Positions 1,289 through 8,713 of a DNA stretch of 64,000 bases are shown piece by piece; the stretch's first letter is position 1, and each line of letters opens with the position of its first letter. Source of the stretch: an uncultured Flammeovirgaceae bacterium. GTDB lineage: Bacteria > Bacteroidota > Bacteroidia > Cytophagales > Cyclobacteriaceae. Position numbers and translations under genes: made by a program. Location of the stretch: the NCBI GenBank assembly GCA_937884755.1, contig CAKZYJ010000469.1:7666-71665 (forward strand), given 5' to 3'. The notes under the pieces were generated by a model. That model saw only the letters and a program-made list of their open reading frames with translations, ran no database searches and was not told the origin of the DNA.

Positions 1289-2239
1289 TTAAAACACCTG
1301 CTCGGCTACACGACGCACCATTTCTGATTTGCTCATGGTATAGAAGTGGAGGCAAGGCACTCCGGCGGCTTTTAGCTCGCGGCACTGCTGAGCACACCAC
1401 TCAATACCTACCTCACGGACCTGTTTGTTATCTTTACATTTGGCCACTTCCTTTCGCAAATCTTCGGGAATATCCAGAAAGAAATACTTCGGCAAAGCTG
1501 TCAAGTGATTAAGCGTAGCCATAGGTTTTAAGCCGGGAATAATAGGCACATTGATACCATTAGCTCGACAGAGTTCCACAAAATTGAAGTACACCCGGTT
1601 ATCGAAGAACATCTGGGTTACAATAAACTCAGCTCCGGCTTCCACTTTCTGTTTCAGGTAATATAAATCTGTATCCAGATTGGGCGACTCAAAGTGTTTT
1701 TCGGGATAGCCCGCCGCACCAATACAGAAGTCGGTAGGAGTAGACACAGACTCTTCGTATAGATACTTTCCCTGGTTCATGCCGGTAATCTGCTCGATCA
1801 GCTCGTTAGCGTAGCAGTGGCCTTCGGGGTGAGGCACAAAACCAGGTTCGGTTTTTACCGGATCTCCCCGTAGCACCAGTACGTTATGAATACCCAGAAA
1901 ATCTAGATCAATCAGCATATTTTCCGTATCCTCCTGCGAAAACCCACCGCAAATAACGTGGGGGATGGTATCCACGTGATAACGGTTCTGGATAGCCGCG
2001 CAGATACCTACCGTGCCAGGGCGTTTACGGGTGACATACTTCTTCAGCATCCCGTTGCCCATTTCTTTGTAGACATGCTCCTCGCGATGATAAGTCACGT
2101 CAATAAAGGCTGGCTTGAACTCCATCAGCGTATCAATGTGCCGGAACAGTGTATGAATATCTTCACCTTTTTTGGGAGGAAGAATCTCAATAGTAAACAG
2201 CGTTTCCGTAGCCTGAGCTAGATGTTCGGTCACTTTCAT
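1289..2239 (-). CDS. metF: 5,10-methylenetetrahydrofolate reductase
   Basis: Motifs EILPP, PHVICGG, VLVLRGDP, AGYPEKH, AEFIVTQMFFDN and LHFYTM. Confidence 0.95.
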   Translation of the reverse strand: MKVTEHLAQATETLFTIEILPPKKGEDIHTLFRHIDTLMEFKPAFIDVTYHREEHVYKEMGNGMLKKYVTRKRPGTVGICAAIQNRYHVDTIPHVICGGFSQEDTENMLIDLDFLGIHNVLVLRGDPVKTEPGFVPHPEGHCYANELIEQITGMNQGKYLYEESVSTPTDFCIGAAGYPEKHFESPNLDTDLYYLKQKVEAGAEFIVTQMFFDNRVYFNFVELCRANGINVPIIPGLKPMATLNHLTALPKYFFLDIPEDLRKEVAKCKDNKQVREVGIEWCAQQCRELKAAGVPCLHFYTMSKSEMVRRVAEQVF

Positions 2240-2243
2240 GCTG

Positions 2244-2251
2244 CAAATATA
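2244..2251 (-). promoter_or_regulatory. Bacteroidota -7 promoter element of metF
   Basis: The minus strand reads TATATTTG (TAnnTTTG consensus) 4 bp upstream of the ATG, suggesting a nearly leaderless mRNA. Confidence 0.5.
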
Positions 2252-2342
2252 ATAGCTGTAGTGTTAATGTATGATTTAAGGGGTTCTAGTAATTTGTATG
2301 GTAATTTTGAATACCATACGGCCGCCGCCTGAACACTATCAC

Positions 2343-3056
2343 TTACAGGGTGGTGATGCTTTCCAGTAGCTTTTTGCGGTACGACTGGCTGACAGGAATA
2401 ATTTTATTTTCTACCTGTAGGTTGCTCTGATCAATATTGACGATTTTATCAACCCGAACAATGTAAGAACGATGTACCCGTAGAAACTCTCCCTGAGGTA
2501 AAGTATCTTCTACTGACTTCAGTGTAGCGTATACCGTATGTAGTTTGTCGGCAGTTTTTACGCGCACGTAATCCCCAAATGCTTCAATCCAATTAATGTC
2601 TTTTAGATAAAATTTTACCAATAAAGAGTCTACCTTCAGTATAATATGTTCGGGTTTTGTGGATGAAGGGGCAACATTGCTTTTCTCGTACTTCAGTTGG
2701 ACTCGCTGTACTGCCTGCAAAAAGCGAGCGTAGCTAGCTACTGGCTTAAGTAGATAATCGGTAACTTCGTAATCGAAGGCATCTAGGGCGTACTCTTTTT
2801 TGCTACTGATAATAATAATCTGTGGCTTAGGATTTAGCGTTTTTATAAGCTCTAACCCCGACATATCGGGCATTTCTACATCCAGGAACAATAGATCTAC
2901 GGGTGATTGCTGAAGAGCATTTGCAGCCGCTACCGGATCCTGAAAAGAGCCTATTAAATGTAGTGAATCAGTTTTCTTAACCAGTGCCTCCATGATCTTC
3001 AACGTCATGGCATCATCGTCAACTACCGCACAACTAAGCTTCCGGGCTGCACTCAT
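2343..3056 (-). CDS. LytTR family response regulator
   Basis: REC domain (VVDDD, LFLDVEMP, YLLKP) plus LytTR domain (FLRVHRSYIV). Confidence 0.95.
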   Translation of the reverse strand: MSAARKLSCAVVDDDAMTLKIMEALVKKTDSLHLIGSFQDPVAAANALQQSPVDLLFLDVEMPDMSGLELIKTLNPKPQIIIISSKKEYALDAFDYEVTDYLLKPVASYARFLQAVQRVQLKYEKSNVAPSSTKPEHIILKVDSLLVKFYLKDINWIEAFGDYVRVKTADKLHTVYATLKSVEDTLPQGEFLRVHRSYIVRVDKIVNIDQSNLQVENKIIPVSQSYRKKLLESITTL

Positions 3057-3112
3057 AAGGTAACTATTCAGATTAGATTGAAGGTGTTTTCTAAATTAAT
3101 ATACGTTTTTTT

Positions 3113-5053
3113 CTATTTTTCTGGTCGATTTTTTGAGACTTTATTATCTCCCTGAAGCGAGATGCGTTGACGGGCCTGTCGCGAGTGCCAAATAGCTTCC
3201 TGAGTCAACTCTTCCAATTGGTCAATAATAGATTTATCAGGCTGGGTCCGTTCCGATTGTTCGTAATAATCCTCTAACTGACTAAGTAGATGCTCAACTT
3301 TAGTTGCTCCTATGTACTGAAAGCCTGGTTTGGCTTTATGAACAGCTCGGTTAAGTTGCTGCGAATCATTTTTCTGCCAGGCCTGCCGTATTTTTTCAAT
3401 AGCCAGCGGGGCTTGCTGCTCAAAGGTATCTATCAGATCAATCATTAAATCTAGTTGGTTACCGGTGATTTGCTTAAGGTACTCAAGGTTTATTGAAGAA
3501 GAAATATCACGATCAAGAAGCAGCATTTTTTCCAGTAGCGTTTGGGGGAGAATAGGTTTAGACAGGGTAAGAATTACTCCTTCAATCGAGGAAGGTAAAG
3601 CAACTTGATGAACATTCCCAGATACTACGATAGTGGGAACTAGTCGTTGCTCCTGATGCAAAGTCTTCAGAACTTCAGCTCCATCTACTTCAGGCATCTG
3701 GTAGTCTAATATCAACAAATCATAGGCTTTTGTTCGTAGTTGATGCAAAGCTTGGGTGCCATTTTCGGCCACAATGTCGTGCAACCCCCACTGGGTTAAC
3801 AACTGAGTTACTACTTTCTGATTAATTGCATCGTCTTCGGCTACCAGCACTTTTTGGATACTTTGAAAAGCCGGTTGCTGAGAATCAGTTTCATTCTCCG
3901 GTGCTTCCCCTAGTGGTAAAGCAAGATTGATGGTGACCGTGGTTCCTTGTTGAGGCTGACTGGCAATAGCCCAGGTACCATCAAACCGTTCTACCAATTT
4001 TTGAACAATACTTAGCCCTAAGCCAGTACCTCCGTAGTACTGATGAATCTGTTCGTTAGCTTGGATGTAGGGGTTAGCAATACGTTTCTGTTCTGCTTTC
4101 GTCATTCCGATACCGGTATCGGAAACCGAAAAGCGAAGTTGAGCTACCGATTGGGTTGCGTCCAAGGTAGTATCTACCAAAAGCTTTATTTCGCCTTGCT
4201 CAGTAAATTTTACTGCGTTGCCCAACACGTTGTACAGTACCTGAGCCAACCGAGTAGCATCTCCAACTAGCCAGTCGGGCACCAAATTGCTTATTTGAAC
4301 CAACAGATTGACACCCTTTTCCTTACAACCGAAGTGGAATGCCTCAGCTACGCTCTGTACCAGTGTCCGAATTTGGAATGGGGCCGGACGAATCTCAATA
4401 GTACTGTTTTCCAACTTAGCCCAATCCAGCACATCGTTGACAATGGTGGTAAGATGTTGAGCAGTAGTTTTTAAGGCTTGCACTGAAGTATTTACTGAAG
4501 GACCCGCCTGCTCGGTTAGTAAATGAGCCAACCCCACAATACTATGCAGAGGAGTGCGCATCTCATGGCTCACCTGGGTAAAGAAATCAGATTTCATCTG
4601 CTCTATCCGCTGTAGCTCTTCGTTCTGATACCGCAGAAGTTCCTTTTCAAGAGCAGCAGCTCGTTGCTGAAGCCGAAGGTATTCGCCGGCAATGGCTTGC
4701 TCGTTTCGTTCCTGCTGCCAGGGTTGAAGGTAGGAGTAAAACTCAGTGAGATCGTAGATAAACCACTTTAAAATTTCCTCTGATACTCGATTGATAAAGA
4801 AAATAAAGTACAACTACAGGCCTAACAATGAAGTTATTATACATAAAAAGGATACATCGTTTCCCACGAGTAGCTGGGCAAATGCCTCCTGCATGGCTTC
4901 CATGAACGGAATGCTCTGATAAACGGAAGTTGCTAAAGGGATTTCAAATAAAGTTTGGCACGACTCTTTCACTTCGCCCTCAACTGTAAAGACCACATAC
5001 TGAGAACGTTGGTGGAAATACGCCAGTTTTTCTCGTACGAGCGAATTGTTCAT
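3113..5053 (-). pseudogene. hybrid histidine kinase (N-terminal PAS-like, HisKA, HATPase, REC, Hpt) with an in-frame TAG at 4814-4816
   Basis: ORFs 4814..5053 and 3113..4813 are in one frame separated by a single TAG. Motifs: H-box SHEMRTPL, N-box NVLGNAVKFT, G-boxes DTGIG/GGTGLGL, REC (LILDYQMP), Hpt (VHKAKPGF). Confidence 0.8.
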
Positions 5054-5535
5054 ACCATCCTTTGGGCCAGTTCGGTAAATATTACGTCTACATTTTCGCC
5101 AGTCTTAGCACTAGAAAGAGCGAATGGAGACAAAGGTAGCTGCTTGATAATATCGGTTCGTTCTTTTTCGGTGAATAGGTCTTTCTTGTTGCCCACTACT
5201 AGTACTGGCACGTTGGGCAGGTATTTTTTCAGGTTAATTATTTCAGTGTCCAGTTGCTCGTAAGTGGCGGGGCGGGTCAAGTCCACTACATAAATAACTC
5301 CGTGCGCTCCCAGTTTGTACGATTGAGGCACCTTCTGATGAGAAGATTCTCCGGCGATGTCCCAGATAATCATGGATACCTCTACCCCTTCCAGCGCTAC
5401 TACCTTCTTTTCAATATTGACCCCAATGGTGGTACTATACTGATCGGAGCACTTCCGGTGCACAAACCTTCGGGTTAGCGAGCTTTTTCCCACCCCGTAG
5501 TGTCCCAGCAATATCACTTTCTTACTTAGGGTCAT
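5050..5535 (-). CDS. Rab/Ras-like small GTPase (prokaryotic Rup-type)
   Basis: G1 GHYGVGKS, G2 TTIG, G3 WDIAG, G4 NKKD and G5 SSAK in a stand-alone 161-aa protein. Confidence 0.92.
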   Translation of the reverse strand: MTLSKKVILLGHYGVGKSSLTRRFVHRKCSDQYSTTIGVNIEKKVVALEGVEVSMIIWDIAGESSHQKVPQSYKLGAHGVIYVVDLTRPATYEQLDTEIINLKKYLPNVPVLVVGNKKDLFTEKERTDIIKQLPLSPFALSSAKTGENVDVIFTELAQRMV

Positions 5536-6385
5536 TAGCAGCCTGAGTAAAATAGCGCCGTAGCGGTTCTGATAGATAGTCGCTTTCTCCTCGATGAGTC
5601 GTTTCGTACTGAGTCGGATTCATTACCTTATGAACAAAATCGAGCACCTTGTCGTCCAGTTGCTGTCTAAAAGCGGCAGTAATCACTCCCGACACGGTAA
5701 CGGCTATGTAGAAGGTCTGAAAGTTTTTGATCAGAATCTTATAAGTTTCGTATTCAACCACCTCCAGGCTCTGATGCTCTTTGGCAAAGGCTTCTTTCAC
5801 AAACCCTCGAATGGCAGTCAACATACCGGCAATCATGTCACGATCTAGAATATTCTGGCGCGAATAGCTCCCCAACAGTATACTTGAGTCCTGCTCAATT
5901 ACGAAAACCTCCTCAATCGTAGGCTGCATGGCTTGCACAATAATTTCTTTCCCCAACGATTCACCGGTAACCCAGGCCCGGAACCGATGCTTCCACATAT
6001 CCCAGGAGAAGGCCTGATCTAGCTGTTGGTCGATCTTTTCCGACATTACCGCGATCTCTGCTACAATATATTTTTTGACTAGCGTGCCCATAATCGGATA
6101 GAGAGCATCTATTACTTCGCCGCGTGACTCTCGAATTTGCCGCTTGATTGTCTGGGTTAGAACCGACCCAAACAGCTCCGGGAAATGCTCTCGCAAATAG
6201 TTTAGCTTATCGTCAATGATGGGATCTACCTTCTGCTGCAACCGCTGGCGGGTGTTAATATCATCGTGAAGTTCTACTACCTGCTGGGCTAGTTGCTTTT
6301 GCTCTTTTTGTTCGTCTTCCAGCAACAGCTTTCGTAATTGCTCAAAGTTGCTTTTAGGTTCCACGGCTTCTTCCGGCATATTCAT
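5522..6385 (-). CDS. coiled-coil/DUF-type protein conserved next to Rup-type small GTPases
   Basis: N-terminal 'EQLRKLLL' coiled coil, AIKRQI..S...VIDALYPIMG motif, and a C-terminal longin/roadblock-like alpha/beta segment. Overlaps the GTPase start. Confidence 0.6.
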   Translation of the reverse strand: MNMPEEAVEPKSNFEQLRKLLLEDEQKEQKQLAQQVVELHDDINTRQRLQQKVDPIIDDKLNYLREHFPELFGSVLTQTIKRQIRESRGEVIDALYPIMGTLVKKYIVAEIAVMSEKIDQQLDQAFSWDMWKHRFRAWVTGESLGKEIIVQAMQPTIEEVFVIEQDSSILLGSYSRQNILDRDMIAGMLTAIRGFVKEAFAKEHQSLEVVEYETYKILIKNFQTFYIAVTVSGVITAAFRQQLDDKVLDFVHKVMNPTQYETTHRGESDYLSEPLRRYFTQAANDPK

Positions 6386-6476
6386 GGCGAGGGCTACTGT
6401 TTACAATACTTACGAACTAAGCCTTAAAATACAAATTTTGGGTTTATGTTTAAAACAGGGTGCCGCTAGAGTGTCC

Positions 6477-6821
6477 TCAGGATTGTAGTTTTTTACCAAT
6501 ATCCTCCAGCATCTTTCCCAAAGCAGAGCGATCGGCTGAGCTATTCTGTAATTCGCCAAACTTTTGCGTCATTTCTTCTTTAAGGGTGGCTACGTGCTTG
6601 TCCAAATCCTGACGAAGCTCCTTCACCATCTCATCCATCGTACTTTTCAGTGTAGACAGTTGCTGCTCTACCGCCGCTTTATGCTGCTGAATGAGTGACT
6701 GAGTATCATCAAACTCCTGCTCTATTTCTTTAATGGTATCGCCAAAAATGATGTCTTTAATGGCTTCTATCTTCGGGTCGCCAGCTGCGGCCGGGGTAGC
6801 TTTTTTCTTGTTTTCGCTCAT
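6477..6821 (-). CDS. small coiled-coil protein of the GTPase locus
   Basis: 'KIEAIKDIIFG' N-terminal motif, heptad-rich middle, and 'DRSALGKML' C-terminus. Confidence 0.6.
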   Translation of the reverse strand: MSENKKKATPAAAGDPKIEAIKDIIFGDTIKEIEQEFDDTQSLIQQHKAAVEQQLSTLKSTMDEMVKELRQDLDKHVATLKEEMTQKFGELQNSSADRSALGKMLEDIGKKLQS

Positions 6822-6861
6822 GCTATTGGTAGTTGATAGGGCATTTATTATGTTTTCTATG

Positions 6862-7494
6862 TTACATTTTTAGCAGCTTTCTCAGCGAACTTTCGTCCAC
6901 TTGACCGGAGGGATAAAGCCCTTCATTCTGCTGAAAATCCTTCAGGGCTTGTTCAGTAATATTGTTAAATATACCATCAACCGGAATATCGTGTCCATGA
7001 TCGAGCAATAAAGCCTGTAGTCTCCAGACTGCCGCCCCCTCATCTCCCCGCTTTAGATCTAGTAGTCGTTGCTGGCGCATTAGCTGAAATTGCTCAGGAG
7101 ACCAATCATTATCTTCCATCGTTTTAATTTCACTATTACCGAATCCAACCTGCTTTAGTTGCTGGGAGTGAATCAAACGATCTTCCAGATAGGCAGTAGT
7201 TTTTAATAGTTGCTGGTAATACTGAGAAGCTTGCATTGCCTCAGAATTGCTTTGGTCGGGATAGCGAACATCAATACCCTCGTTGTGCCAAAGTCGGCGA
7301 GCGAAGGCCCCGATTTCGAATACATTTTCGTAGTAGTGCTGTAGTGCCTCAGGGCTGTGGTAATACACGTCGATACTATCGCTGGCAACATAATCATAAG
7401 CTGAGGGAGGATTAAAGCGCCGGAACTTCTGGTACTGGTAGTAGGTAATGATTGGGAGCGTGATGATAATGACTAAAAGAGCTAGCCGCTTCAT
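6862..7494 (-). CDS. membrane-anchored peptidoglycan-binding (PG_binding_1) protein
   Basis: N-terminal TM helix; C-terminal LKRGDEG..V..LQ..L...G....VDGIF...TEQALKDFQ...GL..SG.VD. Confidence 0.85.
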   Translation of the reverse strand: MKRLALLVIIITLPIITYYQYQKFRRFNPPSAYDYVASDSIDVYYHSPEALQHYYENVFEIGAFARRLWHNEGIDVRYPDQSNSEAMQASQYYQQLLKTTAYLEDRLIHSQQLKQVGFGNSEIKTMEDNDWSPEQFQLMRQQRLLDLKRGDEGAAVWRLQALLLDHGHDIPVDGIFNNITEQALKDFQQNEGLYPSGQVDESSLRKLLKM

Positions 7495-7672
7495 GCGTAC
7501 ATAGATATGTTAGAGGTTGTTTACCGAGTATTTTCTTCAATGCGTCTAGTACGATGCTCTCTCTGCCGAATAATTAATTTATACTCCTTATAATTTTTCA
7601 GATTCGCACCACTATTATCCTAAAAATAGTAAAACGGTAGAGTTAAGAAAAAAATATTCTCCAAGAATCACT

Positions 7673-8713
7673 ATGAATACCATAATTTTCACCAACACTT
7701 TCCTATTACTTACCAAAGTTAACTCTTTGCCAACCAACCTACAGTGGATTTTGCAAACTTCTTCGTTGCTGAAGGGTGGTTTCTGGTACATAGGGATACT
7801 TTGCTTGGTTTGGATACCGATAATGCTATGGTGGCATTACCGGAAGGTAGTCTTCACTCCAGGTGCCTTATTGTTGCCAGATTGTATCTTGAATAAACCT
7901 TTAGAAGTTGCTGAGCCTATATTCCTTCATTCTTCGGCTGAATCGGGAAAAGATCCCATCGCACAACCTATTGCAGTTTCTAAACTATACCAAGAACTAG
8001 AGATGGCTAACCAGGATATTGAAATTTTTTTGTACAAAGCTTATCATAATTTTTTAGGTCCCATTGCTACCATTCGGGGAGTTTGTAATGTAGCCGTACT
8101 CGACGGGCAGGAAGAGCATTCAAAACAATATTTTACCCAAGTGAACCATGTAGCAGAATCTATGCTAACCATGCTGGAAAAATTACTGGAAATTTCGGGG
8201 ATTCATAACCATCGCACCAGTTTAGCCCAAATAAACCTCAATGGATTTATTAGAAACTACCAAGACAGCCAGGCTAACCATTCCGAAAGCGTTCAAGCTC
8301 GCTTCCAGCTAAACACTCCCTCGACTTTTCAGGTGTACACCGACTCTTTTTTGCTAACCACCGCCCTTGAAAAAATTATTACCAACGCCTACCGGTTTAG
8401 CAGGGAGAAGCCGCATCGAGTGGTTGATGTTTTTGTAAAACACCAGGAAACTACTGATTATGATATTATCAGACTCAAACAGTATGGTTTACTACTGCCG
8501 ACTGAAACGCTGGATAACTTATTTAAAATGTTTTACCGAAGCAGTGACAAGCCGGATGATCACGGGTTAGGATTTTACGCTGCCCGCTACGCCCTACGCC
8601 GTATGGGAGGAGATATTGCCATAGAATCGGGAGCCGGATACATTACTTTCTGCCTGAGATTACCTAAAGTACACTCCCACCTTCAGGTAAATGGAAATAA
8701 CGATTCAGAATAA
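7673..8713 (+). CDS. sensor histidine kinase-like protein with atypical motifs
   Basis: One TM helix, H-box AYHNFLGPIATIRG, LFKMFYR, and HGLGFYAAR (G2-like). Confidence 0.75.
   Translation: MNTIIFTNTFLLLTKVNSLPTNLQWILQTSSLLKGGFWYIGILCLVWIPIMLWWHYRKVVFTPGALLLPDCILNKPLEVAEPIFLHSSAESGKDPIAQPIAVSKLYQELEMANQDIEIFLYKAYHNFLGPIATIRGVCNVAVLDGQEEHSKQYFTQVNHVAESMLTMLEKLLEISGIHNHRTSLAQINLNGFIRNYQDSQANHSESVQARFQLNTPSTFQVYTDSFLLTTALEKIITNAYRFSREKPHRVVDVFVKHQETTDYDIIRLKQYGLLLPTETLDNLFKMFYRSSDKPDDHGLGFYAARYALRRMGGDIAIESGAGYITFCLRLPKVHSHLQVNGNNDSE

Follow-up and report, generated by a model that had tools for sequence, protein, structure and literature searches.

What does a Rab-like small GTPase do in a bacterial two-component operon? 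The question is raised by positions 2343-7494 of the 64,000-nucleotide stretch of DNA from an uncultured Flammeovirgaceae bacterium that was analyzed here (hereafter the window). In this region, genes on the minus strand encode a peptidoglycan-binding protein, a coiled-coil protein of the DUFY type, a protein of the DUFX type, a small GTPase, a hybrid histidine kinase and a LytTR-type response regulator. Sequence comparisons identify the locus as a Cytophagales member of the Group 1 Rup (Rup1) system of Wuichet & Søgaard-Andersen (2014, Genome Biol Evol 7:57; PMC4316618), which was defined by computation and all testable defining features of which are present. The Rab-like GTPase probably acts as a switch on the histidine-kinase phosphorelay. 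We infer this mechanism from the parts, their conservation and their linkage, which are themselves matters of observation.

The operon and the Group 1 Rup system

Seven open reading frames (ORFs) were called on the minus strand between 2343 and 7494, corresponding to a GTPase operon of six genes in which the kinase gene is split in two. The DUFX gene overlaps the GTPase gene by 14 nucleotides, and the latter in turn shares 4 nucleotides (ATGA) with the kinase gene. The gene list given in an earlier reading of this DNA (the original prediction), with its shared minus-strand orientation and overlapping ends, was confirmed by the ORFs and the Pfam matches, and comprises the following features.

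6862-7494, minus strand: PG_binding_1 protein, 210 amino acids (ORF; PF01471, 1.5e-11)
6477-6821, minus strand: coiled-coil protein DUFY, 114 amino acids (ORF; weak coiled-coil-type matches only in Pfam)
5522-6385, minus strand: DUFX, 287 amino acids (ORF; without a Pfam or NCBIfam family)
5050-5535, minus strand: Ras/Rab-like small GTPase (Group 1 Rup), 161 amino acids (PF00071, 5.9e-31)
3113-5053, minus strand: hybrid histidine kinase, 646 codons (HisKA, HATPase_c, Response_reg and Hpt by Pfam; TAG at codon 80)
2343-3056, minus strand: REC-LytTR response regulator, 237 amino acids (PF00072, 2.9e-19; PF04397, 1.4e-18)
2736-3026, minus strand: REC domain of the response regulator (Pfam)
2358-2618, minus strand: LytTR DNA-binding domain of the response regulator (Pfam)

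The GTPase contains the motifs GHYGVGKS (G1), the switch-I threonine T36, WDIAG (G3), NKKD (G4) and SAK (G5), and the closest solved structures by sequence in the PDB are those of Rab14, Rab1 and Sec4, at about 1e-23. The earlier description of G1 to G5 as intact holds insofar as all five motifs are present, but the catalytic glutamine expected after DxxG is replaced by glutamate, Glu63 in WDIAGE (5347-5349). Across 76 members of the family, G1, the switch-I threonine, WDxxG, NKxD and SAK vary little or not at all, and the position after DxxG is held by E in 37 proteins, N in 11, H in 9, Q in 5 and Y in 5. The C-terminus, ...ELAQRMV, is without cysteine. Eukaryotic Rab GTPases have both a catalytic glutamine in DTAGQ and a prenylatable C-terminal cysteine, neither of which is found here despite the best matches to Rab14 and Rab1. 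Only one other, weak GTPase-like match was seen in the genome (G000:C247:25938-26273, locus L002; E 2.7e-4, 26% identity). It is located inside an open frame of 1021 amino acids, which may encode a Roco-type multidomain GTPase.

The arrangement of these genes is conserved far beyond chance. A scan for DUFX homologs in one genome per species yielded at least 521 loci, of which we examined the best 80, all from other species and belonging to the Roseivirgaceae/Cyclobacteriaceae, the Flavobacteriaceae, the Chitinophagales and some Gammaproteobacteria; neighbors were counted when encoded on the same strand. A GTPase gene is found alongside the DUFX homolog at 76 of the 80 loci, the other four being on short or truncated contigs, and a gene for the coiled-coil protein DUFY at 68. 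At 61 loci a kinase gene is located directly downstream of the GTPase gene, in 26 cases with the identical 4-nucleotide ATGA overlap, and a PG_binding_1 gene is linked at 32 loci, in two different gene orders. The genus, along with other genera of the same family, shares the full order of PG-binding, coiled-coil, DUFX, GTPase, kinase and LytTR regulator genes. Synteny is retained in nine related genomes, and the LytTR regulator gene adjoins the kinase gene in the relatives. Furthermore, of 41 related genomes, 11 have both DUFX and the GTPase and the other 30 have neither. The co-conservation of the genes, on which the original prediction depended, is thus decisively borne out by the neighborhood survey.

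Group 1 Rup GTPases were described as proteins with Ras-like G motifs without the G3 glutamine and not coupled to MglB (PMC4316618). Their gene neighborhoods include the coiled-coil protein DUFY and DUFX, the latter frequently with a membrane helix and an OmpA domain after it, as well as an output protein, either a histidine kinase or a GGDEF/EAL protein, which has an invariant glutamine in its N-terminal region (PMC4316618). It was proposed that this glutamine replaces the missing catalytic glutamine in trans (PMC4316618). Table S2 of the same study gives the order DUFY>DUFX>Rup in the Flavobacteriia, including Lacinutrix, and DUFX without OmpA in the Bacteroidetes (PMC4316618). We identified DUFX homologs with the Table S2 gene order in several species of Lacinutrix, a match at the level of the genus, and also in Kordia, Aquimarina and others.

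The locus in the window has the same characteristics. The GTPase is a Ras-superfamily protein of 161 amino acids (the range for the group being 150-240) with canonical motifs, a non-MglA G3 and no catalytic glutamine after DxxG (Glu63 instead). No match to Robl_LC7, by which MglB would be recognizable from sequence, was obtained for any neighbor of the GTPase with the Pfam and NCBIfam models. DUFY and DUFX are encoded adjacently, in the order coiled-coil, DUFX, GTPase, and the output protein has two candidates, Q18 and Q114, for the invariant N-terminal glutamine. The optional peptidoglycan-binding element is also present, here as a separate gene instead of an OmpA fusion. That Rup GTPases were already known from bioinformatic work, as the original prediction stated, is correct, and the very same gene set has been described (PMC4316618). 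The hypothesis of GTPase-gated regulation was essentially published already for Group 1 Rup (PMC4316618) and is not new. Our additions are all predictions, namely a longin/Roadblock fold in DUFX, a PAS domain with a QxRN helix in the output protein, the portability of this module and a PG-binding stand-in for the OmpA domain.

Candidate partners of the GTPase

The hybrid kinase, encoded directly after the GTPase, is composed of the following parts.

4748-5053, minus strand: PAS-like domain, residues 1-102 (AlphaFold2/Foldseek)
4703-4714, minus strand: QxRN motif in the helix, Q114-x-R116-N117 (alignment)
4406-4597, minus strand: HisKA (Pfam)
3917-4264, minus strand: HATPase_c (Pfam)
3527-3850, minus strand: REC (Pfam)
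3197-3439, minus strand: Hpt (Pfam)

Judged by domain content, the output is a complete His-Asp-His-Asp phosphorelay, with HisKA-HATPase-REC-Hpt in the kinase followed by the REC-LytTR regulator. The hybrid kinase with REC and Hpt put forward in the original prediction thus has all of its domains, but not in one open frame, as it is interrupted by a TAG codon at 4814-4816. The N-terminal domain was modeled with AlphaFold2 (AF2) from the intact sequence of a sibling metagenome-assembled genome (MAG; GCA_039196995.1, 97.45% identical over 14.4 kb). The model shows a PAS fold that is capped by an N-terminal helix and leads into a long helix at the C-terminus, in the order beta-beta-helices-beta-beta-beta and then the long helix, with a predicted local distance difference test score (pLDDT) of 92.6. 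No Pfam PAS model matched this domain at 1e-4. The best Foldseek matches are FixL, HTR-like PAS and ARNT/HIF PAS domains, in agreement with the PAS-like N-domain suggested earlier.

Conservation within the module was determined in an alignment of 151 sequences, consisting of the best 150 cluster representatives and the reference. A D-L-T motif (YDLTE) marks the end of the PAS core, with D101 in 129 and T/S103 in 140 of the sequences. Of the two candidate invariant glutamines, Q18 is kept in 149 and Q114 in 142 sequences, and the latter is accompanied in the post-PAS helix by an Arg-Asn pair, R/K116 (148) and N117 (150). An exhaustive profile search recovered the PAS/QxRN module in 636 clusters at 50% identity, N-terminal in all of them. 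It is joined to a histidine kinase, to histidine kinase-REC or histidine kinase-REC-Hpt, to LytTR or to SpoIIE/PP2C, or stands alone as a protein of about 130 amino acids, and the QxRN helix is retained in every output type. SpoIIE/PP2C is the output in 8 of 77 sampled module-bearing proteins (for example at L065, 8302-9561), and LytTR is fused straight to the module at six loci. Because the module is N-terminal throughout and joined to varied outputs, we interpret it, on its domain architecture, as a Rup-coupled input domain. The fusions suggest that the signal runs from Rup to the module and on to the output, which would end here in LytTR-type transcription control.

An alternative gene order was also observed, in which the GTPase is followed by a PAS/QxRN-LytTR fusion of about 250 amino acids without a receiver domain, DUFY, DUFX and PG_binding_1. 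It is present at L053 (5362-8436), L055, L059, L063, L068 and L071, and appears from its domain content to be a short-circuit version of the system, with the GTPase-coupled module placed directly on a DNA-binding domain.

Encoded on the other side of the GTPase is DUFX, for which the AF2 model predicts two long helices in the N-terminal region (residues 11-67 and 69-125; together window 6011-6355) and a C-terminal domain at residues 144-254 (5624-5956). The latter has the order helix-strand-strand-helix-strand-strand-strand-helix at a pLDDT of 83-93, and every top Foldseek match in the PDB is a longin or Roadblock protein, with E-values from 7e-5 to 1e-3 and target-normalized TM scores of 0.5-0.7. 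These include TRAPP Bet5/Trs23, Mon1-Ccz1, LAMTOR/Ragulator, AP sigma, MglB and Streptomyces Roadblock/LC7 proteins, and a longin/Roadblock-type fold is predicted for the C-domain. In the alignment, the best conserved motif of DUFX is LYPIxGxxIxKY (residues 95-106), in which P97 and G100 are invariant. It falls in the lowest-confidence stretch of the model (pLDDT 41-48) and may represent an interface to a partner or to the membrane. DUFY has a conserved motif of its own near the N-terminus, KIEAIKxLIFGEN, with F26 and G27 invariant in 31 sequences. An hhalign comparison of DUFY with the N-terminus of DUFX, made to look for common descent, aligned only a 14-residue motif (KIEAIKDIIFGDT vs FEQLRKLLLEDE), with a probability of 4% and an E-value of 0.011.

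The PG-binding protein of 210 amino acids is bitopic, with an N-terminal hydrophobic anchor at about residues 4-22 (7429-7485) and the PG_binding_1 domain at the C-terminus (residues 153-207; 6874-7038). In the Cytophagales the gene is separate and upstream, and is not fused to DUFX. Because it is linked in both gene orders, we consider it, on gene neighborhood, a lineage-specific stand-in and functional counterpart of the OmpA fusion found in other phyla. The co-conservation of this gene is the basis on which the module may be linked to the envelope.

We hypothesize that these components work together in the following manner. A DUFX dimer, probably formed through the long helices and perhaps joined by DUFY, would present a longin/Roadblock-type platform that binds Rup and sets its nucleotide state, either as a guanine nucleotide exchange factor (GEF) or as a GTPase-activating protein (GAP). 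Rup-GTP would then dock on the kinase's PAS/QxRN module, altering autophosphorylation, and the signal would travel by way of REC and then Hpt to the LytTR regulator, and from there to transcription. Because Rup is without a catalytic glutamine of its own, Q18, or Q114, R116 and N117 in the post-PAS helix, may complete the active site in trans, and if a residue of the module does so, the timing of the switch would also fall to the effector. A link between the module and the cell wall may be provided by the membrane-anchored PG_binding_1 protein. The suggestion that DUFX or the kinase N-domain regulates the GTPase, made in the original prediction, fits the predicted longin/Roadblock fold and the near-invariant Gln, Arg and Asn residues, and the role in polarity that was also raised there received no support from the present analysis. 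Taken as a whole, the explanation of the locus as a Group 1 Rup module with a DUFX platform and control of the kinase by Rup-GTP through the PAS/QxRN module seems to us reasonably likely.

Several observations weigh against this explanation. The longin/Roadblock assignment comes from one AF2 model with a mean pLDDT of 68.9, which is confident in the C-domain only, and the Foldseek E-values for DUFX are 1e-4 to 1e-3. A comparison of DUFX with the PDB sequences, using phmmer and a 35-sequence profile, gave coiled-coil noise and no longin or Roadblock match. The PG-binding protein has only about three cytoplasmic residues for contact with cytoplasmic partners, and its gene is absent from the Flavobacteriaceae loci, where a fructose-1,6-bisphosphatase gene is found upstream instead. 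The direction of the signal from GTPase to kinase is deduced from domain fusions alone, and the kinase gene carries a premature TAG in this assembly. Finally, we found no experimental work in the literature on Rup1 or the Table S2 locus tags, and for none of the Group 1 Rup systems did we find measurements of binding, of GTPase or kinase activity or of expression.

The roles of the two candidate partners could also be distributed differently. It is possible, but we lean against it, that the longin/Roadblock domain of DUFX is a true GEF/GAP platform while PAS/QxRN is an effector-GAP of a new kind, which would provide Gln, Asn or Arg in trans. Another arrangement would have DUFX as an MglB-like GAP that supplies or positions the catalytic residues, with PAS/QxRN as a pure effector whose invariant residues serve PAS-kinase signaling and not catalysis. 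The Foldseek matches to MglB and to MglA-MglB complexes (6izw, 6h5b, 6hjm) point in this direction, as does the combination of a DLT motif closing the PAS core with a conserved helix, which is typical of PAS-kinase coupling. However, QxRN is also kept in the standalone modules of about 130 amino acids and in the LytTR and PP2C fusions, where there is no kinase to couple, and the best DUFX matches are as much to GEF-type longin subunits (TRAPP, Mon1-Ccz1) as to MglB, and we consider this arrangement unlikely. We also considered that the GTPase could be the output, such that the kinase or its PAS module responds to a signal by loading or unloading Rup, which would act with DUFX and DUFY on a target at the envelope. 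In favor of this is the published analogy to the conservon, whose GTPase was put forward as the output (PMC4316618), and standalone PAS/QxRN proteins without an enzymatic output do exist. Yet the module is joined to many outputs (histidine kinase, LytTR and PP2C here; GGDEF/EAL in the literature), as is usual for an input domain, and a dedicated LytTR regulator is encoded downstream of the kinase. A GTPase that serves as the output thus seems improbable to us, and we favor the hypothesis that Rup acts on the kinase.

The interrupted kinase gene

The in-frame TAG at 4814-4816 splits the kinase gene into an ORF of 79 amino acids (4814-5053) and another of 566 amino acids (3113-4813). The kinase ORF is continuous in all nine relatives and also in the sibling MAG (646 amino acids), and at the position of the TAG the relatives have a sense codon, for Glu in six of eight and otherwise for Lys or Ser. 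The TAG is part of a patch of 34 nucleotides (4785-4818) with nine clustered transversions that are absent from the relatives. All of these changes are from a pyrimidine (C or T) to A on the plus strand and all are non-synonymous, converting the conserved PAS hairpin GREGYYNFYIKRE to GL*LYFIFFINRV; the sibling-type sequence at the patch is GGCCGGGAGGGG... The 5.15-kb operon is about 97% identical to that of the sibling MAG, with 153 differences, and in the 14.4 kb shared with this genome there are 70 transversions in total and no other cluster of at least five within 40 nucleotides.

Three explanations for the patch were tried and rejected. Recoding of TAG is contradicted by the long ORFs of the window, 7 of 35 of which end in this codon, and by the sense codons of the relatives. 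Mutagenesis of the type caused by diversity-generating retroelements is specific to A, whereas the sibling has G at five of the nine altered positions. For gene conversion from a paralog, no second copy of the patch was found in the 8.35-Mb assembly.

The patch is either a sequencing or assembly artifact or a genuine cluster of inactivating mutations. If the TAG and the eight neighboring changes are real, the kinase is a pseudogene and the locus a decaying, non-functional copy, a scenario that deserves to be taken seriously even though we give it the smaller chance. The TAG is found within nine clustered transversions that replace a hairpin conserved in all relatives, and its absence from 30 of 41 related genomes shows that the module can be dispensed with. 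On the other hand, the remainder of the kinase and the five other genes are intact, the operon has remained close in sequence to that of the sibling MAG, and a one-directional cluster confined to 34 nucleotides, with no equal in 14.4 kb, is more suggestive of an artifact of sequencing or assembly.

Related GTPase systems and flanking genes

The locus resembles the Group 1 Rup systems in the DxxG motif without Gln, in DUFY, in a DUFX protein that is without OmpA, as in the Bacteroidetes, and in an output protein with an invariant N-terminal Gln, but there are also differences from the published description. A separate, co-conserved PG_binding_1 membrane protein is found here, as compared to the OmpA-DUFX fusion there, and the output is a full HK-REC-Hpt and LytTR relay, with relatives that fuse the N-module to LytTR or PP2C. 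A longin/Roadblock fold is predicted here for DUFX, whereas Rup was not predicted to work with MglB homologs (PMC4316618). In addition, the kinase is interrupted in this assembly.

Like the MglA-MglB polarity switch of Myxococcus and Thermus, the module would combine a small Ras-superfamily GTPase with an adjacently encoded Roadblock-fold partner, and structures of MglB match the C-domain of DUFX at a Foldseek E-value of about 5e-4, a likeness at the level of the fold only. However, the G3 motif is TVPGQ or GTPGQ in MglA and WDIAGE here, and the closest sequences are Rab1 and Rab14 rather than MglA. MglB is a Robl_LC7 protein, whereas DUFX is not recognized by Robl_LC7 or any other Pfam model and has a helical N-region of 140 amino acids. 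Neither the MglA-type G3 nor the sequence-detectable Robl_LC7 that define the MglA/MglB class are thus found here.

The conservon of the actinobacteria (CvnA-D, Mfp), which was offered as an analogy to Group 1 Rup (PMC4316618), has a histidine kinase encoded in one operon together with a small GTPase and a protein of the Roadblock fold. However, CvnD, the GTPase of the conservon, is of the MglA type and belongs to MglA group 2, while the one described here is Rab-like, and CvnA is a HAMP kinase located in the membrane that has LPxR at its C-terminus, in contrast to the soluble hybrid kinase with PAS input. CvnB is a Robl_LC7 protein, CvnC contains DUF742 and there is no response regulator, whereas a LytTR regulator follows the kinase here. 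None of the conservon Pfam families is present at the locus.

The best structural matches to the DUFX C-domain are to the eukaryotic platforms TRAPP Bet5/Trs23, Mon1-Ccz1 and Ragulator/LAMTOR (2j3t_C, 6.8e-5; 5ldd_B, 1.5e-4; 6ehp_A, 2.4e-4). The eukaryotic longin/Roadblock platforms partner GTPases of the Rab and Rag types, and Rup is Rab-like. DUFX, which could serve as a GEF, a GAP or a scaffold, differs in that it is one bacterial protein whose N-region is a coiled coil and is without detectable sequence similarity to these platforms.

Group 1 Rup GTPases are the nearest bacterial kin of Rab, Ras, Rho and Ran proteins from eukaryotes. If the longin/Roadblock partner and the PAS/QxRN effector are true, the module would offer a compact and tractable bacterial model of how a Ras-type switch without a catalytic glutamine is regulated, and would bear on the origin of the eukaryotic pairs of GTPases and regulators. 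If DUFX is indeed a platform and the module an effector-GAP, the pairing of Rab/Ras GTPases with longin proteins that is seen in TRAPP, Mon1-Ccz1 and Ragulator would already have been present in bacteria, where it would be wired to two-component signaling and the cell wall. The value of this particular window is modest, as it presents a variant from the Cytophagales in which the PG-binding gene is separate and the output is LytTR, and it also serves as a caution, given the probable sequence error or pseudogene in the kinase.

Downstream of the operon, an AT-rich hairpin (TATGGTA...TACCATA) is located 3' of the LytTR gene, within 2240-2342, and a Bacteroidota-type TAtaTTTG motif is found a few bases before the start of metF. 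Together, the hairpin and the motif suggest that the operon ends at 2343 and that metF has a promoter of its own. A scan for sigma-70 promoters and terminators in 2100-7800 gave fewer sites than shuffled sequence, the consensus being inapplicable to the Bacteroidota. A reading of the locus in terms of anti-phage defense was rejected, as PADLOC returned generic kinase and REC matches only.

On the upstream side, a membrane histidine kinase (HATPase_c, weak HisKA) is encoded at 7673-8713, divergently from the PG-binding gene across an intergenic region of 178 nucleotides, and the 3' end of its gene overlaps a convergent ppk gene by 9 nucleotides. The synteny of this kinase gene is restricted to the genus, so a link to the Rup module cannot be inferred from it. 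Finally, a lipoprotein-like gene of 247 amino acids is located between an RDD gene and metF (524-1267). It is also present in the sibling MAG (L023, 13123-13866), beyond which no match was found in the relatives. At locus L014, only about 10 nucleotides separate the RDD gene from metF, which fits a recent insertion of the lipoprotein-like gene.

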